Source: a virus
Lineage: Duplodnaviria; Heunggongvirae; Uroviricota; Caudoviricetes
Strand: one strand, 5' to 3'
Length of the DNA stretch: 64,000 bases
Virus record (IMG/VR): IMGVR_UViG_3300009500_000011
Coordinates: 104,585-168,584 of that record
Made by a program: the position numbers and the translations under genes. Every line of letters begins with the position of its first letter. The stretch's first letter is position 1. The notes under the pieces are model-generated. The model made no database searches and had not been told where the DNA came from. It saw only the letters and a list, made by a program, of their open reading frames with translations. Positions 11,147-57,228 of the stretch are shown here, piece by piece.

Positions 11147-11659
11147 ATGGATTTTTTAGTTGGCGATATATTAGTTTTAAAACAAGATGCTCTTGACCTT
11201 GAAGATAAAACTGGCAAAACAATTTTATATCCCGCAGGTTCCGAAGCTGAAATTATACAAATAAAAAATGAAAATGAATATCATCTGCAATTTCCAGATG
11301 CCAAAATATGGCCTCATGACTTGGCAACTTTATTGATTTTCTTTAATCGTAAAAAAGATGGTAAAAATGTTTATACTCGCCAGGTTTCAGAGTATGGTAC
11401 GCCACCAAAAGAGCTTGCTTTTTATATACCTAGAGAAGTTGATTGGCGTAAAAACTATAGGTATACTGTCAGAATTGAAGCAGAAGATTGTGGCTTTAAA
11501 AAATTGATTTGTCCTAGTTGTTTCAATGACCTGGGAGAAAATGGCGAACCAGATAATGAAGGTTTGCAAAAATGTCAAAAATGTGGTACAATGGTTCTCC
11601 CGATAGACCCATTAACATTCAAGTATCCACATGATGACGGAAATGAACACACAACTTAA
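11147..11659 (+). CDS. hypothetical protein with C-terminal zinc ribbon
   Basis: CPSC...CQKCG pair of CxxC motifs. Confidence 0.45.
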   Translation: MDFLVGDILVLKQDALDLEDKTGKTILYPAGSEAEIIQIKNENEYHLQFPDAKIWPHDLATLLIFFNRKKDGKNVYTRQVSEYGTPPKELAFYIPREVDWRKNYRYTVRIEAEDCGFKKLICPSCFNDLGENGEPDNEGLQKCQKCGTMVLPIDPLTFKYPHDDGNEHTT

Positions 11660-12935
11660 GAGTAATTCTCAAAAATTCTTAGAAGCAGCAAATTGGGCTC
11701 TTGTAAAAGAACGCTTTGGCGAAGATACAGGAGTTAATATTCGTCGCGCTTCTATAGATAATGTGCAAAATATTACGCTTTTCAATGGTTCAAAAGGTTT
11801 ACTTTTTGATGGATATTCGTTTCCTGAACAAGAACATCTTAAAGGCTTGATTGTTCACGAAGTATTAGGAAGCGCACATTCGGTTATAGCGGCATGTTTT
11901 CCTAAATTCTATAACTATGGCGAACCTGCTGAAAAACAAAAGCATCTTGAATACTTAAATGACGATTCTATGAGTGTGTTATTTGCTAAGAAAGAGGATG
12001 GAGTAAATATTCGTCCTTATTTCAATGCTGCAACAAATAGAGTTGAATTTGCTACGCGCGGAACCTTGCTTGTTGTTTCTGATATTGAAGAAACGTCTAA
12101 TCTTGATTATGGCGCAATGGCTCGTTCAATTGCAGAAGAAAAATATCCAATTCTTTTGGATGAGGAATTTGTAAAGAAATACTCTTGTATTTTTGAAATG
12201 ATTCATCCTGATTCCAAAATTCTTACGGATTATGGACAAAGAAAAGACCTTATTCTTCTGTCAGTATTTGATTTAGAAAATAACTGCTATGAATTTTCGC
12301 GTGAATGGGTAGCATCTTGGGCAAATATAATTGGGTTAAATTATGTTGAATATTGGTTTGACCAATATGCGCCTGTTTCTGAATTTTCTTCTTTAGTTGA
12401 AAAACTACTTAAAAAATGGAACGAAACGGATGTAGAAGGTTCTGTTGTTATATTTGTAAACTCTGAAGCAGAACCTGTATATCGTCTTAAAGTTAAAAAT
12501 GCTTATTATTTACAAATGCTTCGACTTGCAAAATTTTGCACTTTGAAGAATTTAGTCTCAATCATGGAAGAAAATAACTTTTCAAATTGGGAACAACTTC
12601 GTGCATATTTGTACGAAAGCCCTTCAATGAATGAAGAATTAGAAATGGCATATAAGGCTCATTTTGATGTATATGAAAATTGGTTAGCAAATCTTGAAAT
12701 CGAAAAACAAAATGTTTTAAAAGAATATCAAGAATTACCTTCTTTCGAATTACAAAAAGATTTTGCTTTATACATCTTAAAAGATGGCGCTTATCCATAC
12801 AATCCGCTATTCTTTGCTATTCGCAAATGGTTAGCAGAAGCCAAAAATCCTAATTTAGAACAATTCTTTGAAGAAAATGTTAAAGCAACAGTAATGTTGA
12901 AGAAAATCTATCCACTATCGGAAGTAGAGGAATAA
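11631..12935 (+). CDS. ATP-dependent RNA ligase (Rnl1-like)
   Basis: Covalent nucleotidyltransferase motifs: motif I KKEDGVN (T4 Rnl1 has KEDG), FEMIHP, motif IV-like VEGSVVIF, motif V-like RLKVKNAYY. Confidence 0.7.
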   Translation: MMTEMNTQLKSNSQKFLEAANWALVKERFGEDTGVNIRRASIDNVQNITLFNGSKGLLFDGYSFPEQEHLKGLIVHEVLGSAHSVIAACFPKFYNYGEPAEKQKHLEYLNDDSMSVLFAKKEDGVNIRPYFNAATNRVEFATRGTLLVVSDIEETSNLDYGAMARSIAEEKYPILLDEEFVKKYSCIFEMIHPDSKILTDYGQRKDLILLSVFDLENNCYEFSREWVASWANIIGLNYVEYWFDQYAPVSEFSSLVEKLLKKWNETDVEGSVVIFVNSEAEPVYRLKVKNAYYLQMLRLAKFCTLKNLVSIMEENNFSNWEQLRAYLYESPSMNEELEMAYKAHFDVYENWLANLEIEKQNVLKEYQELPSFELQKDFALYILKDGAYPYNPLFFAIRKWLAEAKNPNLEQFFEENVKATVMLKKIYPLSEVEE

Positions 12936-17137: not shown

Positions 17138-17224
17138 GGAAGTATCGCATAGCGGCGATTGCATCTGACTGTAAATCAGACGCGCGAAAGCGCCTCGGAG
17201 GTTCGAGTCCTTCTACTTCCACCA
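17138..17224 (+). tRNA. tRNA-Tyr(GTA), type II
   Basis: Acceptor GGAAGTA/TACTTCC, loop CTGTAAA. Variable arm GCGC-GAAA-GCGC. T arm GGAGG-TTCGAGT-CCTTC, CCA. Confidence 0.9.
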
Positions 17225-17235
17225 TTTTAATAATA

Positions 17236-17371
17236 TTTTGAGTTGCGCTAGAATAAAGTTACTTCGTCTGTAAAACGAGGAATCCGGGTTCGAGTCCCGG
17301 TCGGAATCTAACGATTTCGGTACTTTAATCGGTAAAATCCTAAACACTTTGTTCGCTACCTTCGCTCAAAA
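17236..17371 (+). ncRNA. Y-RNA-like / YrlA-like element with tRNA-mimic module, embedded in the tRNA array
   Basis: TTTTGAG/CTCAAAA terminal helix. TTGCG...AAAGT pairs with ACTTT-gtt-CGC, followed by TACCTTCG, the same 3' box as element B. TTACTTCGT box. Anticodon-like arm CTTCGT-CTGTAAA-ACGAGG. Perfect T arm CCGGG-TTCGAGT-CCCGG. Confidence 0.55.
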
Positions 17372-17399
17372 TATTTTAAAAACTTGTTGCCCATAGTAT

Positions 17400-17474
17400 G
17401 CCGAACTAGTATAATGGCTATTACATCTGTTTCGTAATCAGAGAATCTCAGTTCAATTCTGGGGTTCGGCCCCA
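17400..17474 (+). tRNA. tRNA-Thr(CGT)
   Basis: Acceptor GCCGAAC/GTTCGGC, loop TTCGTAA with a U-U at the loop-closing pair. T arm CTCAG-TTCAATT-CTGGG, CCA. Confidence 0.7.
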
Positions 17475-41542: not shown

Positions 41543-44500
41543 ATGTCGCTACTCTTGTTGTATAACCGTAAACTTTTTCAGTCTACATTAACTAATTCTA
41601 ATTTAACTTCTGATTCAAATTCAAGAAAAACTTATTTTTCAAGAACTAATGTAGATTCAAGTTTGTTTTCTGATTCTTCTGCTAGAAGTGCAAATTATAA
41701 TAGAGCATCATCAGATATATTCAACTTATCTGATAGTCTTTTGCGTAATACGTTTTATGCACGTAGTTTTCAAGAAATATATTCTTTTTTCGATTCATTA
41801 AATAGACAAGTTGATAACAGTAGAAGTGAATCAGAAATTTTTAGTACGATTGATATTCAAAATTTATCACGATTTTATAATCGTTCATCCACAGATTCTT
41901 TTAATTTTTCTGATAGTAATTCTCGGTTTTTAGATTTTGCTCGTCTTCAATCTGATGTTTTAATTTTTAATGACTTAATTAATCGTTCCACTAATGTAAA
42001 TCGTTCTATAACCGACCAATCTATAGAGATAGATTCTTTAACAAGACAAATTATTGATAATCGCCAAACTTCGGACGTATTCAATACTATTTTATCTTTT
42101 ACAGAACAGCAGTTTTTATCTAGGTCAACTACCGATGGATTAAGTTCTTTTACAGATTCTTCATCGTATAGTCGAGTTTTGCCACGTTCTGTTATGGATA
42201 CTTTTAGTTTTTCGGATTCAAATTCTATTTCTCAATTACTTCTAAGAACATTTAGTGAAAGTTATTCTTTCAATGATGTTCTTAGTAATTCTGGAACTCA
42301 TATCGCTTTTTTAAGTGATGTATTAACAAATTTTGTAGATTCAATAAGCGCCGAACAGTTTGTTTCAAGAACAATGTCTGATAATCTAACGACATTAGAT
42401 TTAGTAACTTCAGTTAAGACTTTTTATAGATTAAATTCAGATAATACTAACTTTGCAGATGCTATCTCTTCTGCTAATATTTTAAATAGATTTAATATTC
42501 AAAATTTAAATTTTAATGATTCACTTAATAATCAAAATATTTTTAATAGAAATAATAGTGATTTAGTTAATAATTTTAATGATTCCACTTTAATATCTCA
42601 ATTTTTAAATCGAACCTCAAATGAGGTGTTTTCAACATCTGATATTTTATCTTTGGCGCAATTTTTGTCTCGTAATCCAACAGATATTCTTACAACGTTA
42701 GATAATAACGGTAGAAATATCTTTATTTCTAAATCAGTAATTGATTCTATTTTAACTTTCGATAGTCTTCAAAGCACGAAGATTGCTAATTTAAATCTTC
42801 AAGAAACATTTAGCTTTAGTGATGTTCTTTTAAGAAATATTATAGATTTCCGTACAAATTCAGACAGTTTTGCGTTTGTTGATTTTGTCAATAATTATAA
42901 TATATTTACAAAATCAATTGTTGAATCTTTCCAAACAAATGATTTGCTAACAAGGGAGTATATCTCAAATCAAAATCTTCAAGAAAACTTTAATTTTTTA
43001 GATATATTATCTGAAAGTCAATTTTTACAAAGACAATGTTCAGAACAATTTAATTTTATTGATGGTATATTGAGAGAAGTAATCATTAATAGGGCCATGA
43101 ACGAAACTCTATTGGAATCAGATGACATTACTACTGCTTTAGTTTTCTTTAGGAATATAAATGAACAATTCTCTACCGCAGCATCTGTAAGTTATGTACA
43201 TTCATTCGTTAGAAATTTGTTAGAAAATTTTGCAACTTCTAATTCCATTAGCAGGGCTCTTATTTCTCCAAGAAATACTTCTGATTTCTTTAATCAAATT
43301 GTCGATACTTTAAATTCATATAAAATTGCCAATTTTAATCTTGATGAAACTTTTGCATTTAATGATTCTTTATCTCAAATGTCTCTGGTTTTTAGGAATT
43401 TTTCAGATTTATTTAGTTTTTTTGATTTTACAACAAGTAATGCAATAATTCCTAGAAATATTGAAGAATCATATCCTATAAGTGATTCATTGTCCAATAA
43501 CAATTTGTTTTCAAGACTTTTCGAAGAAGAATTTAATTTTACTGATGCTGTTAATATAAGTCAGAGTTTGGCGCGTCAATTCTTAGATAGTTTTATTTTT
43601 TTTGATAATGTTTCAACAAATAGTTCAGGCGGTTTGTTTTTAAGAGTAATATCAGATGTTTTAAATACTAATGATTCTAGTGAAATAAATCAATTTTTAA
43701 ATCGTGAAAATACCGATACATCATTAACTAGTGATTCGCTCCAAAACTCCAATATTTTAAATAGACAATTTCAAGACTTATTAAGTATAGCAGATACCTT
43801 AACTTCTACTAATGAATTTAATAGATTTTTTTCTGATTTGTTGCAAACTAATGATGCTGCAAATTCAAATTACGTTTATAATTCAAATTTATCTGATAAT
43901 TTAAACACAAGTGATTCGCTAAATAGATTTTTTCTAAATATTGCAAACTTAGCAGAAACATTTACAACAACAGATTCCAACTCCAGAGAATCTATTTTGG
44001 CGCGAAGTCTATCTGAAACATTTTCTCTATTGGATTTATTAACTAGAGTTTTATCTAAAGTAAGGTTATTAAACGATAATCTTCCCTTTACTTTTGATTC
44101 ACTTGCAACATATAGTACGTTTTTTAGAGAACTGCAAGAAGAGTATATATCATCCGAAGAATTAATTAACGAATCTATTTATAAAAGGCAACTTGAAAAT
44201 ACATTTACAACTTTGGATGAGTTGATGCGTGTTTTACTTATTGCTAGGGAAGTATTTGAAGTCGGAGAAATATCAGATACTGTTGCAAGTAAAGCAGTTA
44301 TTCTAAGATTTGTAGAAGAATTTTTTGAATTAGTAGATAATATTGCCTTAAATCAAAGAATTAATCGTAGTTCTGAGTATCAAAGTAACTTCTCGGATAT
44401 TCTAAATAGAGAAGTTATATTAGAAAGATTTTTGTCTGATTCAAGTCAATTTTTTGACAATTCTTTACTTCAAAAAGTTGGTGCAAGATTTTTCGTTAAT

Positions 44501-44878
44501 TTATTTGATGAATACTCATTTACTGATGAACTTATTGGGACAAGTTTGTTAGAAAGATTTTCTCAGGACATATTACAAACAGCCGATGAAGTTGCTCGTT
44601 TAGTAAATAATAATAGAAGTGTAGAAGAAATTTTTGAATTCTTAGATATTGCTTCGCGTAAACCAGTATTTAAAATTGGTCAAAGAGTTAAATTCAGATA
44701 TAATGGTGCCTTATGTCAAGGTAAAATTATTTTAAGATATTATGCAACAAATCCTAGTGAAGGCATTAGATATCAAGTTAATGTTGATTTTTGTAGTAAT
44801 TGGAAAGCAATTGGAAAAACAACACGAATTGATGTAGATTTAAATGATTTATTATCAATTAATCCTCAGAATTGGTAA
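41543..44878 (+). CDS. giant tandem-repeat protein (~50 x 20-aa units), putative fibrous virion protein
   Basis: Period-20 repeat R-x2-S-[DE]-x-F-x-F-x-D-S-x8 over about 1000 aa. Unique C-terminal domain ending PQNW. Confidence 0.6.
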   Translation: MSLLLLYNRKLFQSTLTNSNLTSDSNSRKTYFSRTNVDSSLFSDSSARSANYNRASSDIFNLSDSLLRNTFYARSFQEIYSFFDSLNRQVDNSRSESEIFSTIDIQNLSRFYNRSSTDSFNFSDSNSRFLDFARLQSDVLIFNDLINRSTNVNRSITDQSIEIDSLTRQIIDNRQTSDVFNTILSFTEQQFLSRSTTDGLSSFTDSSSYSRVLPRSVMDTFSFSDSNSISQLLLRTFSESYSFNDVLSNSGTHIAFLSDVLTNFVDSISAEQFVSRTMSDNLTTLDLVTSVKTFYRLNSDNTNFADAISSANILNRFNIQNLNFNDSLNNQNIFNRNNSDLVNNFNDSTLISQFLNRTSNEVFSTSDILSLAQFLSRNPTDILTTLDNNGRNIFISKSVIDSILTFDSLQSTKIANLNLQETFSFSDVLLRNIIDFRTNSDSFAFVDFVNNYNIFTKSIVESFQTNDLLTREYISNQNLQENFNFLDILSESQFLQRQCSEQFNFIDGILREVIINRAMNETLLESDDITTALVFFRNINEQFSTAASVSYVHSFVRNLLENFATSNSISRALISPRNTSDFFNQIVDTLNSYKIANFNLDETFAFNDSLSQMSLVFRNFSDLFSFFDFTTSNAIIPRNIEESYPISDSLSNNNLFSRLFEEEFNFTDAVNISQSLARQFLDSFIFFDNVSTNSSGGLFLRVISDVLNTNDSSEINQFLNRENTDTSLTSDSLQNSNILNRQFQDLLSIADTLTSTNEFNRFFSDLLQTNDAANSNYVYNSNLSDNLNTSDSLNRFFLNIANLAETFTTTDSNSRESILARSLSETFSLLDLLTRVLSKVRLLNDNLPFTFDSLATYSTFFRELQEEYISSEELINESIYKRQLENTFTTLDELMRVLLIAREVFEVGEISDTVASKAVILRFVEEFFELVDNIALNQRINRSSEYQSNFSDILNREVILERFLSDSSQFFDNSLLQKVGARFFVNLFDEYSFTDELIGTSLLERFSQDILQTADEVARLVNNNRSVEEIFEFLDIASRKPVFKIGQRVKFRYNGALCQGKIILRYYATNPSEGIRYQVNVDFCSNWKAIGKTTRIDVDLNDLLSINPQNW
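41600..44640 (+). repeat. ~50 tandem 60-nt (20-aa) degenerate coding repeats
   Basis: Consecutive 20-residue units such as RASSDIFNLSDSLLRNTFYA / RSFQEIYSFFDSLNRQVDNS / RSESEIFSTIDIQNLSRFYN / RSSTDSFNFSDSNSRFLDFA. Confidence 0.75.
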
Positions 44879-44904: not shown

Positions 44905-44933
44905 TTGCAAATATTGGTATGCTTGTCTATAAT
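44905..44933 (+). promoter_or_regulatory. sigma70-type promoter for the Y-RNA-like array
   Basis: TTGCAA-17 nt-TATAAT. Confidence 0.55.
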
Positions 44934-45030
44934 CTCTAATAGAGTTGAAGCTGAAGGAAACGAAGCAGGTGGTTTAAATGCCATCGGAAGCAAGTGCAAG
45001 TCTTGCCATCTCTGCCATAAAAAACTAAAT

Positions 45031-45258
45031 AAATTTGAGTTGCGTTAGAGTACGGTTACTTCTTAATTGACATATACCTAATGTCCCACCTCAATAAAGG
45101 AGTAAAATCTTTTATTGGGCTAGTCACCTGAGTCGTGGTGAGACGCATTGTGCAAATGTTAGTGGAGGCTCGTAAAATAAGCCTAGAACTAAAAATTCTT
45201 AGACTTAAGATGTAAAAATCAAAAGTCGGTCCCGTACTTGCCCTCTTCTCTCAAATTT
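45031..45258 (+). ncRNA. Y-RNA-like element A (upstream of Ro60 gene)
   Basis: Terminal helix AAATTTGAG/CTCAAATTT. 5' TTGCG..AGTACGG pairs with 3' CCGTACT. Conserved TTACTTCTT box. Same architecture as elements B, C and the one at 17236. Confidence 0.55.
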
Positions 45259-45275
45259 ATTTTAAAAATTAAAAA

Positions 45276-45346
45276 CTTGGGTTGCGACAGATTACAGATA
45301 CTTCTTATATGGAATAAAAAAGCTGTATTCGCTACCTTCTCCCGAG
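45276..45346 (+). ncRNA. Y-RNA-like element B (minimal hairpin version)
   Basis: CTTGGG/CCCGAG terminal helix. Internal loop tt / TACCTTCT. GCGACAG pairs with CTGT-att-CGC. ATACTTCTT box in the apical region. Confidence 0.55.
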
Positions 45347-45362
45347 TATAAATTTTATAATA

Positions 45363-45456
45363 TTTAAATTGCGTTAATTACAGATACTTCTTGTATATTG
45401 GTTCGAGTCCATTAAGTGTAGTCGGTACACAACTGTAGTTGTTCCATTCGTTTAAA
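45363..45456 (+). ncRNA. Y-RNA-like element C with tRNA-like T arm
   Basis: ATTTAAA/TTTAAAT terminal helix, TTGCG...TTACAG pairing with CTGTAG, ATACTTCTT box, TGG-TTCGAGT-CCA T-arm mimic, GTGTA-gtcgg-TACAC hairpin. Confidence 0.5.
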
Positions 45457-45464
45457 TTTTATTT

Positions 45465-45498
45465 AATCCTTGGGAATATATTTCTCAAGGATTTTTTT
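45465..45498 (+). terminator. intrinsic terminator closing the Y-RNA-like array
   Basis: AATCCTTGGGA...TCTCAAGGATT followed by TTTTT. Confidence 0.6.
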
Positions 45499-45519
45499 GT
45501 TGTCATAAAGGAAAAAAGA

Positions 45520-47205
45520 ATGAAATACAATACTAAAACAGTAAATGCTGGTCCAGGAACAAAAATGATAAATCTTGCAGGCGGAGAAGCTTTTAAAGTT
45601 GATAATCGTACTGCATTATATTTAACTTCTGCAACTTCTTTAGGTGGCGGTCAAGGAAATAAATATTATGTTTCTGCAAATCAAGAATACAAAAATATTC
45701 TTGAACTAATTGAAAAGGTTTCCGCTCAAGACCCAGAATTTATTTTCCAATTGGCTGCATATTGTCGTCAAGATTTATACCTTCGTAGTATTCCAACGGT
45801 ATTATTTATCGAAGGTATTCGTGCAATGCATAAGCAAAAAAAGGCCAATGCACCATATCCAGTAGATGCATCTAAGTATGCAAATGCTATTTTTGGTCGT
45901 GCTGATGAAATTGTTGAAGCAGTTGCATATTGGCTTGGAGTTGAAGGCCATCACAAATTGCCTTCCCCTCTTCGTAAATCTTTGACCATTGCTTTAAATT
46001 CATTTGATGAATACCGCTTGCTTAAATATAATCAAGAAGATAAGCAAGTTACATTTAAAGATATTGTTCGTCTTGTGCATCCAGAACCAAAAACTGATGT
46101 GCAAAGTGCAATTTTCAAATACTTCATCAAGGATGAAATCAGTCCAGAATTAATGCCAAAGGCAACTGCCCGCAAGGCTTTGCTTTCACGTACTCAATTT
46201 GATGAAGAAGCACAACGCTTGATGAGAGATTCATCTGCTACTTGGGAAACTGTAATTGCTAAATTCGGTTCGACTAAAGAAATTTGGGAAGCAGTTATTC
46301 CAAATATGGGATACATGGCTTTATTACGTAATCTTAATAATTTTCTTAAAAAAGAAGTAGATTTAGATTTAGTAATTCCTCGCCTTGTGAATCCGCAAGA
46401 AATTCGTAAAAGCAAGCAATTGCCTTTCCGTTTTTACACAGCAATGAAACAACTTGGTGTAGAAGATAACAATAAGAATTCTACGATGACATATTATGGA
46501 TATTCCGATTCAGTAAAAACAGCATTTGAAAAATGGCGTAATGTAAATTCTAGCGATGGAATTTCTCGTTTACGTAATGCTCTTGGTGTTGCTATGAATA
46601 TTGCAGTAGAAAATGTTCCTCACCTTTCAGGTCGTACCGTTGTTGCGGCAGACCTTTCTGGTTCTATGAGTCAACCTCTTAATAACAAATCAAATGTAAC
46701 TTATCGTGAAATCGCTTGTATTATGGCTGGTATTGCTGGTTCAATAGCACCAGATAATGTAATTTGTGGATTTGGTTGTTCATTTGCTGTTGCTAAAAAA
46801 GGCAAAGATATTCTTGAAACTGCAAATAATATTGATAAATTAAATGTTGGAATGTCAACGGATGCATGGCGTATTCTTGATTACTTGCTTACAAACAAAA
46901 TTTTTGTAGATAGAGTCATGTATTTTACAGATACACAATGTTATAATTCATATGGGGGCGCAAATTTAAACGAACTTTGGAAAAAATACAAAGTTCTTTG
47001 CCAATCAACTGGTAAAAAAGTTCCTGTTCTTTATGAAGTAAATCTTGCAGGTGGTAATACATCTAGTTTTAATTCTGAACAAAGAGTTGCTACCATTGGT
47101 GGATGGTCTGAAAGAATTTTTGATTTAATTACTACTTATGAAACTGACCCTCGTCAAGCAATAAGTAAAATTAAAGAAAAATATTCAGATTTAGTATCTG
47201 TTTAA
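45520..47205 (+). CDS. rsr: Ro60-related protein (TROVE domain + vWA), Rsr-like
   Basis: Start trimmed to MKYNTKT behind AAAGGAAAAAAG. TROVE-like helical repeat region (FIFQLAAYCRQDLYLRSIP). C-terminal MIDAS AADLSGSMS. Confidence 0.85.
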   Translation: MKYNTKTVNAGPGTKMINLAGGEAFKVDNRTALYLTSATSLGGGQGNKYYVSANQEYKNILELIEKVSAQDPEFIFQLAAYCRQDLYLRSIPTVLFIEGIRAMHKQKKANAPYPVDASKYANAIFGRADEIVEAVAYWLGVEGHHKLPSPLRKSLTIALNSFDEYRLLKYNQEDKQVTFKDIVRLVHPEPKTDVQSAIFKYFIKDEISPELMPKATARKALLSRTQFDEEAQRLMRDSSATWETVIAKFGSTKEIWEAVIPNMGYMALLRNLNNFLKKEVDLDLVIPRLVNPQEIRKSKQLPFRFYTAMKQLGVEDNNKNSTMTYYGYSDSVKTAFEKWRNVNSSDGISRLRNALGVAMNIAVENVPHLSGRTVVAADLSGSMSQPLNNKSNVTYREIACIMAGIAGSIAPDNVICGFGCSFAVAKKGKDILETANNIDKLNVGMSTDAWRILDYLLTNKIFVDRVMYFTDTQCYNSYGGANLNELWKKYKVLCQSTGKKVPVLYEVNLAGGNTSSFNSEQRVATIGGWSERIFDLITTYETDPRQAISKIKEKYSDLVSV

Positions 47206-47282: not shown

Positions 47283-47858
47283 ATGATTTCTTGTTGCGAT
47301 GAATGTGTAAATTATGTTGAGTGTGATAAATGTGAAGGATGTTATGAGTGTGATTCTTGTATTTGTTCGCAATCAAACTCTGGAGAAGAAGACTTTGTGG
47401 CAGAACTTCCTGATGCACCATTTGAAACTTATTATGCTCAAGATGGTTTAATTTCTTTTGGCGCATATTTAGACATTATCTTAATGTATAAAAAATTATT
47501 TTCACCTAATTTAGAAAATTCATTAAGTGTAAATGAAATGTCTATTAATTCTATGCGTGAATTTATTTGGGAAAAACTAAAAGAGCTTTCAACAGAAAAT
47601 GATGAATTTAAAGAATCTGTCGTAAATACTCAACAAAATGTTGATAAAATGCGATTAGAGTTTGAAGCAAATAAAAATAAAATGCAAAGCTTAGAGCAAG
47701 AAAACGTTAATCTTGGTAAAAATATGATTGACAAAGATGCTGAACTTGAAAGATTAAGACGAGAAATAGATACTTTAAAGAGTGAACTTAGAGTTGCCCG
47801 TGGAGTCAATTATTTTCAATCACATAATATTAAAACGGAAGACATGAAGCATGAATGA
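47283..47858 (+). CDS. Cys-rich N-terminus plus coiled-coil protein
   Basis: CCDEC..YVECDKCEGCYECDSCIC, followed by a long heptad region. Confidence 0.45.
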   Translation: MISCCDECVNYVECDKCEGCYECDSCICSQSNSGEEDFVAELPDAPFETYYAQDGLISFGAYLDIILMYKKLFSPNLENSLSVNEMSINSMREFIWEKLKELSTENDEFKESVVNTQQNVDKMRLEFEANKNKMQSLEQENVNLGKNMIDKDAELERLRREIDTLKSELRVARGVNYFQSHNIKTEDMKHE

Positions 47859-48468
47859 AAATAAAAAATACACAGGCATAATTTTTGTTGGTCCTCTTGG
47901 TTCAGGGAAAGATTTTATTTTATCTCGTATTCGTAAAGCTTTTGATGAAAGTTTGACAGAATATCATGTCTGGAATGTTGGAGATTATTATTATAAGCAT
48001 TTAGGCAAACAAATTAATAAATCCGTTAAATATATTGTTGATAATAAAGCTCGTTTTAGAAGTCAACTGCAAGCAATAGGAACAACTCCATCTATTGTTG
48101 AACAAGGTGTTGCGTATTCACTCGGGAAATATCAAGACCTTAGTGCTTGGGGTGTCTTACCTGTTTTAACAGGTAGATTAAAAAATGAAGTTATTGCTTT
48201 AAAAGAATTAGGTATTGCAGTTATTTTTGTTAAAACTTCTGTTGAAACAAGAGCAAGACGTATATATCAAAGAGACGGAAAATTTCCTTCTGAATCCCAA
48301 TTAAATCATCCAGTAGAACCTAAATTTGAAGATTTTGAAGAATTGGCAGATGCAGTAATCATAAATGAAGATGAATCTGGAGATTTTTATGTAAAATTTA
48401 ATCCCGATGTTAATGCATTAACATATCTTAATAAATCATGTCAAGGCAAACTTATTTTTGACATTTAA
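47851..48468 (+). CDS. P-loop kinase-like protein (dNMP / polynucleotide kinase-like)
   Basis: Walker A VGPLGSGKDFI at the N-terminus. Small kinase-size protein. Confidence 0.55.
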   Translation: MNENKKYTGIIFVGPLGSGKDFILSRIRKAFDESLTEYHVWNVGDYYYKHLGKQINKSVKYIVDNKARFRSQLQAIGTTPSIVEQGVAYSLGKYQDLSAWGVLPVLTGRLKNEVIALKELGIAVIFVKTSVETRARRIYQRDGKFPSESQLNHPVEPKFEDFEELADAVIINEDESGDFYVKFNPDVNALTYLNKSCQGKLIFDI

Positions 48469-48495: not shown

Positions 48496-49146
48496 ATGGA
48501 AACTCAAAAAACCTTCTTTACTAGTGATAATCACTTCAATCATGAGAATATAATTAAATTTTGTTTTCGTGGTTATGGTTCTTATGAAGAAAGAAAAAAT
48601 AACCCAGAACTTCATTTCAAATCAATAGGTGAAATGAATGAAATTATGGTTCAACGTTGGAATGAAGTGGTTGGACCAACCGATACTGTATATGTACTCG
48701 GTGATTTTGCTATGGGTGATAAATATAAGTCTGTTGAATATTTTAATAGGCTAAATGGAACAAAACATCTAGTTCTTGGAAATCATGATTGTAGTAACTT
48801 TGTCAAAAAAGAAGTTCACCCTGCAATCCTTGAAATGGGTTTTGCTTCAATTACTGAAGAACTATACGCAAAAATAGATGGTCGAAATGTATGGATGGCT
48901 CACATTCCATATGGTCATAATAATGATAAACGTAACTATCTTCGTGAAAAAGTTAAGCCAGGTTTTTCTCTTAAAAAAGATGTTATTCTAAGTGGCCATG
49001 TACATGATAAATGGATTATAAATAATCATAATTCCATTAATGTGGGAACAGATGTTTGGGATTTTTACCCTCAAACCTTGTCTCAACTTCTGGAAAAAAC
49101 AAAAGACCTTCCTCGTTTTGATTCTTCAATATTTCTTCCTGTTTAA
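48496..49146 (+). CDS. metallophosphoesterase
   Basis: FTSDNHFNH, LGDF, GNHD, GHVHD motifs. Confidence 0.8.
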   Translation: METQKTFFTSDNHFNHENIIKFCFRGYGSYEERKNNPELHFKSIGEMNEIMVQRWNEVVGPTDTVYVLGDFAMGDKYKSVEYFNRLNGTKHLVLGNHDCSNFVKKEVHPAILEMGFASITEELYAKIDGRNVWMAHIPYGHNNDKRNYLREKVKPGFSLKKDVILSGHVHDKWIINNHNSINVGTDVWDFYPQTLSQLLEKTKDLPRFDSSIFLPV

Positions 49147-56690: not shown

Positions 56691-56993
56691 ATGTTAAGCG
56701 AAGAATTTAAAGAAAAAAGATTTAAAGAAAACACATCATTAGATAAAGACCGCATTCTATATTCAGGTGCTTTATATGATGATGTTAGAGCGGCAATATA
56801 TGCTGTAGTTCGTCAATGGCGCGCTTCACATAATAATTTTGGTAAAAATTCTACAATGAAACATGTAGATGAAATTATGACTATGCCTGAAGTAATTCGA
56901 TTATATGACCCATTTTATACAACAAAAAGTTGGTTTAATTATACAGGTTGCACCTGTCGCGGTGATTGCTGCGAAAATCATGAAGAGGAATAA
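56691..56993 (+). CDS. hypothetical protein
   Basis: Intact ORF in the tiling. Confidence 0.4.
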   Translation: MLSEEFKEKRFKENTSLDKDRILYSGALYDDVRAAIYAVVRQWRASHNNFGKNSTMKHVDEIMTMPEVIRLYDPFYTTKSWFNYTGCTCRGDCCENHEEE

Positions 56994-57000
56994 TAAAAAA

Positions 57001-57228
57001 ATGCCGTTTTACAAATTTCGTTGCTCAAATTTTGAATGTAGTTATAACCAAAAAGATTTAAAACCATTAGTATTTGAATTAAATATGTCAATGACAAATT
57101 ATTCTCAATTATCTAAAGATAGTATCACCGGGAATCCAATGGTAAAATGTCCAGAATGTTCTTATGATGCTATTAGAGTATTTGAAGCCCCAGCAGTTCA
57201 TACAGAAACGGGAGTTAAATCAAGATAA
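57001..57228 (+). CDS. FmdB-family zinc-ribbon protein
   Basis: Trimmed to MPFYKFRC..FEC...CPEC, the canonical FmdB N-terminus (MP.YEYRC..C). Confidence 0.55.
   Translation: MPFYKFRCSNFECSYNQKDLKPLVFELNMSMTNYSQLSKDSITGNPMVKCPECSYDAIRVFEAPAVHTETGVKSR

Follow-up and report, generated by a model that had tools for sequence, protein, structure and literature searches.

The stretch of DNA analysed here (the window; 64,000 nucleotides, positions 104,585 to 168,584 of the Caudoviricetes record IMGVR_UViG_3300009500_000011) carries a gene encoding the RNA-binding protein Ro60, directly preceded by an array of non-coding elements resembling bacterial Y RNAs. The window is phage DNA, as judged from 29 tRNA genes, a ribonucleotide reductase, an Rnl1-like RNA ligase, a phage phosphoesterase and matches to PHROG families; among 50,697 phage records, megablast revealed none near-identical to the region. 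Between the stop codon of the upstream gene at position 44878 and the Ro60 start codon at 45520, no open reading frame (ORF) of note is found. This stretch contains, in order, a sigma-70-like promoter, a tRNA-like leader, three RNA elements designated A, B and C, and an intrinsic terminator, while a fourth element, D, is found elsewhere in the window (Table 1). An earlier note on this DNA had described the ORF-free region, its promoter, the three elements and the terminator directly upstream of a Ro60/Rsr homologue, and these features are present at, or at most 3 nt from, the positions it gave. We consider it likely that the region is a phage-borne Ro60/Y-RNA module of the YrlA/YrlB kind known from bacteria, with a diverged sequence. 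A conserved two-helix scaffold, conserved sequence boxes, linkage to Ro60 and a variety of apical modules characterise the RNA family to which the elements belong.

The identity of the Ro60 protein, for which the earlier note had named a hidden Markov model search as a possible refutation, is clear. The TROVE (HEAT-repeat ring) domain PF05731 matches with 112.6 bits against a cut-off of 23 (E 3.5e-32). The vWA_Ro60 domain PF25045 scores 27.4 bits, just below its cut-off of 27.7, and a DxSxS motif of the metal ion-dependent adhesion site type can be read in the translation as DLSGS (AADLSGSM). PHROG 850, annotated as 'RNA-binding protein', matches at 1.8e-46. The best solved relative is the Ro60 of Thermus phage phiLo (PDB 9KOP/9L5Y, E 8e-34), followed by Deinococcus radiodurans Rsr, for which the match spans residues 348-475, and then by Xenopus and human Ro60; the matching Ro60 chains in the PDB are 9KOP, 2NVO, 9NEN and 1YVP. 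Homologues are abundant in the protein database (926 at E ≤ 1e-10), the closest being 94, 64, 59 and about 50% identical, and Ro60 is common in phages, occurring in 202 phage records, each at most 29% identical to the window protein. In one homologous locus (L086, 8312-6173, minus strand), the Ro60 homologue aligns in two pieces, corresponding to query residues 2-170 and 166-541, with about 640 nt of DNA between them, which could represent an insertion, an intron, an intein or a frameshift.

The array has the layout of a transcription unit. Support for the promoter at its start comes from the arrays of related loci, which have a promoter in the same position: a comparable TTGAC-/TATAAT site lies just 5' of the arrays in L004, L005, L006, L008, L010 and L014. 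At the other end, only 19 nt separate the T-run of the terminator from the Ro60 start codon, and these accommodate the ribosome-binding site. Within 45494-45519 there is no promoter between terminator and Ro60 in the window, nor is there one at this place in its relative L002, only a TTGTCA remnant being present. Expression of Ro60 should therefore depend on terminator read-through in these two loci. Six relatives (L004-L014), on the other hand, have a consensus TTGACA/TATAAT promoter between array terminator and Ro60, so that the array there is an independent unit.

Table 1. Features of the Ro60 locus and of related element sites in cultured phages. Coordinates refer to the window unless a locus (L number) is given; R1 is the covariance model (CM) built from the minimal hairpins of the family.
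Feature	Coordinates	Strand	Evidence
Sigma-70-like promoter of the non-coding RNA array, TTGCAA-17-TATAAT	44905..44933	+	promoter scan; L002 sequence identical
tRNA-like leader at the start of the array	44941..45017	+	Rfam tRNA local search; minimum free energy (MFE) cloverleaf; encoded CCA 45015-45017
Y-RNA-like element A; 9-bp terminal helix, 7-bp inner helix (AGUACGG/CCGUACU), ~170-nt structured module	45031..45258	+	fold; boxes; CM (5' half)
Y-RNA-like element B; minimal hairpin (YrlB-like), A-rich apical loop	45273..45349	+	fold; boxes; R1 seed member
Y-RNA-like element C; T-arm and D-arm mimics	45360..45459	+	fold; boxes; R1 match
Intrinsic terminator closing the RNA array	45465..45500	+	12-bp hairpin and T-run (45465-45493)
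Ro60 (TROVE + vWA) gene, 561 aa	45520..47205	+	Pfam, PHROG and PDB matches
Fourth Y-RNA-like element D, full YrlA-type form	17234..17373	+	R1 44.2 bits, E 7e-10 (D outside seed)
Arthrobacter phage Atuin elements (L137, OK040794)	L137 1938-2011, 4240-4316 = about 91467-91540, 93769-93845		R1
Gordonia phage Rabbitrun element (L142, NC_060133)	L142 2095-2173 = about 56972-57050		R1
Further R1 sites adjoining phage Ro60	L141 2133-2206; L140 4020-4089		R1

All three array elements are on the plus strand at distances of 61-489 nt from the Ro60 start codon, which is downstream of them, and thus within the 4 kb on the same strand used as a criterion by Chen et al. (2014). As the earlier note had recognised, they are built to a common plan, which is seen both in their boxes and in their MFE folds, each of which yields the two helices: a terminal helix, a UUGC(N)YAG box, an inner helix, a WUACUUC box, a variable module, the 3' strand of the inner helix, a YGC-YYCUUCU box and the 3' strand of the terminal helix. 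More precisely, the 5' box reads UUGCG-N-YA(G/A), the inner helix comprises 7 bp and is followed by (A/U)UACUUCUU, and on the 3' side (Y)G(C/U) precedes a pyrimidine box that takes the form CCUCUUCU, UACCUUCU or UCCAUUCG. Element A thus reads AAAUUUGAG-UUGCGUUAG-AGUACGG-UUACUUCUU ... CCGUACU-UGC-CCUCUUCU-CUCAAAUUU, element B CUUGGG-UUGCGACAG-AUUACAG-AUACUUCUU ... CUGUAUU-CGC-UACCUUCU-CCCGAG, and element C AUUUAAA-UUGCGUUA-AUUACAG-AUACUUCUU ... CUGUAGU-UGU-UCCAUUCG-UUUAAAU. Paired ends flanking a conserved internal loop, the stem-bulge-stem arrangement of Y RNAs, are found by covariation as well as in the MFE folds. The fold of element A has a z-score of -4.0. Over the whole window, the 5' pattern TTGC-N9-16-TACTTC occurs 6 times against 1.07 expected, a number reached in none of 100 shuffles.

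What the earlier note had taken for a 3-nt bulge is in fact a conserved internal loop, whose 5' strand has about 8-9 nt and whose 3' strand has 10-11 nt. A GCG:CGC mini-helix involving the 3' CGC of the earlier note would fit the window and L004, but not the clades with GCC and GCA. An alternative, in which the G of YAG pairs with the C in the 3' CG and an A-G mismatch comes next, fits more members, although it varies on one side only.

The elements differ in what they carry on top of this scaffold. Element C contains the T-arm mimic UGG-UUCGAGU-CCA (45399-45411) that had been noted before and, directly after it, a previously overlooked D-arm mimic, GUGUA-GUCGG-UACAC (45416-45430), without an acceptor-like hairpin between the two; element 1 of L004 is built in the same way. 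Element D has a T arm, an acceptor-like hairpin and a D arm, and A and B have no tRNA-like domain. The module of about 170 nt in element A (45065-45240) folds into several hairpins, at least one stem of which shows compensatory changes relative to L002, and no Rfam match was found for it. Large modules are also present in L004-2, L005-1, L005-2, L010-0 and L014-3, with no obvious mutual similarity by eye.

Conservation of both helices was evaluated in a curated set of 40 elements from 8 sources, 37 of them non-redundant. For the terminal helix, a composite alignment of 5' half, linker and 3' half was used, in which 84% of the cells are paired. Its seven inner pairs are almost always formed, with many double changes, and the covariation score amounts to 0.846 compared with 0.24 in shuffles and at most 0.23 in slid registers. 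The inner helix, whose 3' strand MAFFT failed to align in the composite half-elements, was assessed by a permutation test and later by CM alignment. The 5' heptamer pairs at 6.16 of 7 positions with its cognate 3' region and at 4.78 of 7 with non-cognate ones, and 0 of 10,000 permutations reached the observed value, which bears out the inner-helix covariation claimed in the earlier note from the window copies, now in homologous loci. Within the 37 elements, the boxes are nearly invariant (TTGC in 36-37, TACTTC in 35-37 and the 3' CTTCT core in 29-37), the spacers between units are A/T-rich and 1-21 nt long, and the modules comprise at least 17 tRNA-like forms with a T-loop, 11 minimal hairpins and 9 large or other forms.

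A covariance model, R1, derived from a seed of 12 minimal hairpins (element B and its counterpart in L002 among them) and a manually supplied structure, retrieves longer elements outside its seed. On the 64-kb window, R1 identified C (32.9 bits, E 1e-6), which is not in the seed, the 5' half of A (E 0.0035) and D, and beyond these and B no other credible match was obtained. In the R1 alignment of 29 matches, pairing extends to 94.7% of cells and double changes are seen at all 15 pairs, with a covariation score of 0.938 (0.249 in shuffles, at most 0.18 in slid registers), but such an alignment is fitted to the structure and its pairing counts are inflated, which has to be set against our interpretation. 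The composite terminal-helix test and the inner-helix permutation test are free of this bias.

Element D, the tRNA-like leader with its CCA and the promoter-free gap between terminator and Ro60 had all escaped the earlier note. Element D is on the Ro60 strand, some 28 kb upstream of the gene, and is flanked by two tRNA genes (17138-17221 and 17400-17471). It shares the boxes and helices of A, B and C and closely resembles element 4 of L004; its module consists of a V stem, a T arm (17283-17300), an acceptor-like hairpin (17302-17319) and a D-like arm (17320-17340). The z-score of its fold is -2.9. The leader (44941-45014, excluding the CCA) scores 32 bits with the Rfam tRNA model RF00005 in a local search (E 1e-4), against a tRNA criterion of >29 bits, and its MFE fold is a cloverleaf. 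It was called neither by the whole-window Rfam search at gathering thresholds nor by ARAGORN. Its anticodon loop has 8 nt (UUUAAAUG) rather than the 7 nt of tRNA, and its T-loop, UGCAAGU, is non-canonical. The stems are maintained in L002, where substitutions are confined to loops or, in the acceptor stem, are compensatory. An encoded CCA also follows two inspected tRNA genes of this phage. In L004, too, the array contains a weak tRNA-like match (2152-2222, 28.9 bits).

Relatives were found through the protein database and the contigs from which its entries derive; a protein-seeded scan of IMG/VR revealed no relative. Ten distinct metagenomic Ro60 loci, with 28-94% protein identity, each contain 2-8 elements, which are on the same strand as Ro60 and almost always directly precede it. 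All close relatives with enough upstream sequence have a long ORF-free stretch 5' of Ro60 that is filled with elements (3 copies in L001/L002, 4 in L004, 6 in L005, 6 in L006, 5 in L008, 8 in L010 and 4 in L014), and each of these arrays follows a sigma-70-like promoter and ends with an intrinsic terminator. For the 8 nearest sources, all credible CM matches are on the Ro60 strand and directly upstream. Somewhat different arrangements occur in L134-L136, with a Ro60 about 36% identical to that of the window, where elements lie on either side of the gene and, in L136, downstream of it; in L135, L136 and Arthrobacter phage Atuin elements are interleaved with tRNA genes. Gene calls overlie the arrays in L010 (603-875 and 914-1114), L004 (2079-2591) and L005 (2209-2415); these have no Pfam matches and are probably spurious ORFs over non-coding RNA genes.

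The specificity of R1 was assessed on viral DNA selected independently of Ro60. A scan of IMG/VR with a DNA pattern of 14 fixed bases listed 80 loci (703 kb), nearly all of them chance matches, 78 of which were kept as a specificity control. R1 recognised 2 of the 80 listed loci, and in both an array of 4-5 elements stands immediately upstream of a Ro60 gene on the same strand, whose product is 28-31% identical to that of the window. Weaker R1 matches adjoin Ro60 in the cultured phages Atuin, Streptomyces phage pSt2308 and Gordonia phage Rabbitrun. None of these three genomes has an RNA feature annotated at the element sites; the two Atuin elements end 1-2 nt before annotated tRNA genes, and the Rabbitrun match overlaps two small hypothetical coding sequences. 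With a covarying family adjoining Ro60 in ten loci and in cultured actinophages, the central claim of the earlier note, a phage-encoded Ro60 preceded by a Y-RNA-like array, is upheld. A weak match (21 bits) is also seen just downstream of Ro60 in phiLo; the published Yrl1 and Yrl2 are upstream. L134, a 607-kb Joint Genome Institute contig, has an element (36.7 bits) upstream of its Ro60 gene, whose product shares 36% identity with the window protein, and the neighbouring genes, encoding TsaD, Sua5/TsaE, a glycosyltransferase and an mTERF-domain protein, look cellular rather than phage-derived. Therefore, the RNA family may not be confined to phages.

Several observations weigh against assigning these elements to the Y RNAs. 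The Rfam search that had been suggested as a check gave a divided answer. Elements A, B and C have no match to any Rfam Y-RNA model, even at E ≤ 10, element D reaches 15.5 bits with the YrlA model RF02553 in a local match only, and the gathering threshold of 69 bits is not attained by any window element. Relatives with full T, acceptor-like and D modules, on the other hand, are matched by RF02553 at E 1e-6 to 1e-2 (L014, 43.5 bits; L010, 36.7; L008, 30.7; L086, 44.5; L135, 41.5; another relative, 43.0; the four matches of 41.5 bits or more have E-values of about 1e-6), but their scores (26-44.5 bits) all remain below the gathering score as well. Furthermore, the defining GNCGAAN0-1G (CGAA) motif is absent from the window elements, whose 5' boxes read UUGCGUUAG, UUGCGACAG, UUGCGUUAA and UUGCGCUAG. 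The homology of this box is ambiguous, since Rfam alignments place the outer helix of YrlA on the inner helix (plus WUAC) of window-type elements. As to the promoter, the site is present and recurs in the relatives, but promoter-like sites across the window are not more frequent than in shuffles (12 found, 14.2 expected). Finally, the support consists of sequence comparison, and expression, processing and Ro60 binding of the RNAs are predictions.

A bridge between the two kinds of box is offered by Rabbitrun. Its element has a canonical CGAA box, AUGCGAAGG, after the terminal helix, at the position of UUGCGUUAG in the window, and the inner helix and UUACUUC come next. The 5' box of the window elements is therefore taken as the diverged counterpart of the Ro-binding motif, and position and sequence in Rabbitrun indicate that the two are probably homologous.

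The absence of the canonical Ro-binding motif might, however, also mean that the elements are trans-acting RNAs whose conserved outer loop binds a partner other than Ro60, such as a host nuclease, a phage processing enzyme or the ribosome, and that they merely share a transcription neighbourhood with Ro60. The invariant UACUUCU and CUUCU boxes are pyrimidine tracts complementary to purine-rich sequences, and if, as in the Rfam alignments, the YrlA terminal stem equates with the inner helix, the outer domain would be an addition. Nevertheless, we regard this explanation as improbable, given that linkage to Ro60 persists over 28-94% protein identity and in very different gene neighbourhoods, that actinophage members have CGAA at the position of the UUGC(N)YAG box, and that a stem, a large internal loop containing a motif and a second stem make up the very plan that phiLo Ro60 binds (PMC12135203). 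Similarly, one could view the hairpins and terminator as a cis-acting leader, an attenuator of read-through into Ro60, rather than as trans-acting RNAs. The terminator in the window and L002, within 19 nt of the Ro60 start and with no promoter in between, would fit this role, as Ro60 must rely on read-through there. Yet six related loci do have a promoter in this gap, element D is 28 kb from Ro60 and the L136 elements are downstream of it, and each element is a self-contained covarying structure, with no conserved alternative pairings between elements, making an attenuator very improbable indeed.

A further alternative starts from the tie to tRNA genes. The window encodes 29 tRNAs and has element D inside a tRNA cluster, the tRNA model matches both the leader (32 bits) and, weakly and in a different register, D (24.8 bits), many family members have T and D arms, and elements and tRNA genes are interleaved in Atuin, L135 and L136. 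These facts would suit degenerate tRNA genes or tRNA-derived repeats of tRNA-rich phages without any functional tie to Ro60. Against such an origin, 11 of the 37 elements are plain hairpins with no tRNA feature that nonetheless have all conserved boxes and both covarying helices, and the order T arm, acceptor-like hairpin, D arm is the permuted order of YrlA and not that of tRNA. Moreover, every copy in the 8 nearest sources, and three of the four in the window, lie directly upstream of Ro60 instead of being spread across tRNA clusters, and among the 80 viral loci listed all CM matches fall in the two that encode Ro60. On balance, a tRNA-remnant origin appears quite improbable, and a Ro60/Y-RNA module is the interpretation that we retain.

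In our working model for this Ro60/Y-RNA module, the sigma-70-type promoter would drive synthesis of a single precursor consisting of the tRNA-like leader, A, B, C and the terminator. Host tRNA-processing and single-strand-specific nucleases may then release the units by cleaving within the short A/U-rich spacers and at the leader, by analogy with D. radiodurans and M. smegmatis, and element D would be made and matured together with the phage tRNAs. Each released RNA would present the stem, conserved internal loop and second stem that are evident from covariation. The phage Ro60 ring is predicted to bind the scaffold stem and internal loop through the 5' UUGC(N)YAG box, at the position of the CGAA motif, while the apical module (an A-rich hairpin, a tRNA-elbow mimic or a large structured domain) could equip each particle with its own partner or gate. 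Exoribonucleases with S1/KH domains, for instance host PNPase, might use the pyrimidine boxes UACUUCU and CUUCU as single-stranded handles, in line with the RYPER model and with phiLo. Ro60 itself is presumably translated from transcripts that read through the array terminator, in which case the RNAs would be far more abundant than the Ro60 mRNA. Such a system could serve quality control of the phage tRNA set, redirect host RNA decay, or supply tRNA-shaped decoys. A bolder proposal, which we put forward as speculation and think unlikely, is that large tRNA-rich phages possess a programmable Ro60 toolkit, in which one invariant scaffold (terminal stem, loop with UUGC(N)YAG and CUUCU, inner stem, UACUUC box) is reused in arrays of 3-8 RNAs. 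Swapped apical modules (tRNA-elbow mimics with or without an acceptor-like arm, large structured domains or A-rich hairpins) would send the same Ro60 ring to different host machines or, as decoys shaped like tRNA, counter host defences that target tRNAs. In that case the outer domain, more than a diverged CGAA site, would have been added in phages and have a partner of its own.

The genes surrounding the locus may provide an RNA-repair context, comprising the Rnl1-like RNA ligase (11631-12935, phrog_562) and, 3' of Ro60, a P-loop kinase-like protein (47851-48468) followed by a metallophosphoesterase (48496-49146, phrog_547). The order Ro60, small protein, P-loop protein, phosphoesterase is repeated in L001 and L004, and in L003 a phosphoesterase is likewise found downstream of Ro60. 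The P-loop protein and the phosphoesterase were considered as a polynucleotide kinase-phosphatase pair, but the former matches only a deoxynucleoside monophosphate kinase PHROG, weakly, and has no Pfam match. Directly 5' of the array, the plus strand encodes a 1111-aa ORF (41543-44878) made up of a degenerate repeat, about 20 residues long and with many S, D, N and F; no Pfam match was found for this ORF.

To a specialist in Ro60 and Y RNAs the principle will come as no surprise, and the value of these results lies in the definition of the family, the size of its arrays and its cultured carriers. The function of the Ro60/Y-RNA particle is partly understood in bacteria; for phages almost nothing is known, a single biochemical study having been published (phiLo, 2025). 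The system is set apart by the diverged box in place of CGAA, the additional pyrimidine boxes, the 'elbow-only' module of T and D arms, the uncharacterised module in A (about 170 nt), the tRNA-like leader and, in relatives, arrays of up to 8 copies. A full-text literature search for YrlA returned no paper that, judged by title and abstract, suggests large Y-RNA arrays or this motif set. This is a well-covarying Y-RNA family that the Rfam YrlA model does not detect, and many phage and metagenomic Ro60 genes seemingly without an RNA partner may consequently have one. Arrays of up to 8 RNAs that share a scaffold and differ in their modules constitute a natural experiment on module function, and the Y-like RNAs in or beside tRNA genes of this phage, Atuin, L135 and L136 tie the system to phage tRNA biology and processing. 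As members are present, unannotated, in the cultured actinophages Atuin, Rabbitrun and pSt2308, expression and binding are directly testable.

Phage-encoded Ro60 with Y RNAs is a known kind of system, given the precedents of Chen et al. (2014) and phiLo (2025). Each characterised species has at least two Y RNAs, of which one forms a long hairpin whose loop is pyrimidine-rich (PMC4201824). Considering also the arrays of up to 8 in relatives, the earlier note overstated the case in calling three tandem paralogues unusual, since every characterised system has at least two Y RNAs per locus. Polycistronic synthesis has been described as well, including a Yrn2-tRNAAsp-Yrn1 precursor, and in M. smegmatis YrlA and YrlB are cut from one precursor (PMC4201824).

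Like metazoan Y RNAs (RF00019), which are Ro60 partners with 2-4 paralogues per genome, the elements have a terminal stem, here with a predicted binding site, and a pyrimidine-rich internal loop. Sequence matches to the metazoan RNAs are lacking, and these have no tRNA-like module and are transcribed from RNA polymerase III genes, not as one array. The rsr locus of D. radiodurans (Yrn1, Yrn2 and tRNA-Asp; PMC4201824) is mirrored by the unit of leader, A, B and C, but the window leader is a non-standard tRNA in its 8-nt anticodon loop and UGCAAGU T-loop, and the elements have no sequence similarity to Yrn1 or Yrn2. Yrn1 and Yrn2 are known to depend on the Ro60 protein. With YrlA/YrlB and Rsr of S. 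Typhimurium and M. smegmatis (PMC4201824), the locus shares the presence of at least two RNAs encoded a few hundred nt at most from Ro60 and on its strand, 5' and 3' ends that pair into a stem flanking a conserved internal loop, one class with a permuted tRNA mimic (V, T arm, acceptor-like hairpin and D arm, complete in D alone among the window elements), and another class that is a long hairpin with a pyrimidine-rich loop. In contrast to these RNAs, the window elements have UUGC(N)YAG in place of GNCGAAN0-1G and extra invariant boxes (WUACUUC and YYCUUCU), C is devoid of the acceptor-like hairpin, A carries an uncharacterised module of about 170 nt and arrays of relatives extend to 8 copies.

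The closest counterpart is phiLo Ro60 with Yrl1 and Yrl2 (PMC12135203; 9KOP, 9L5Y), likewise a phage-encoded Ro60, about 26% identical to that of the window, with stem-bulge-stem RNAs directly upstream. The phiLo RNAs were picked by the CGAA motif, which the window RNAs lack, and there are two of them compared with three, plus one, plus a tRNA-like leader in the window. It is phiLo, whose Ro60 binds its two upstream Y-like RNAs and assembles with host PNPase (PMC12135203), that provides the experimental precedent for both binding and host PNPase recruitment.

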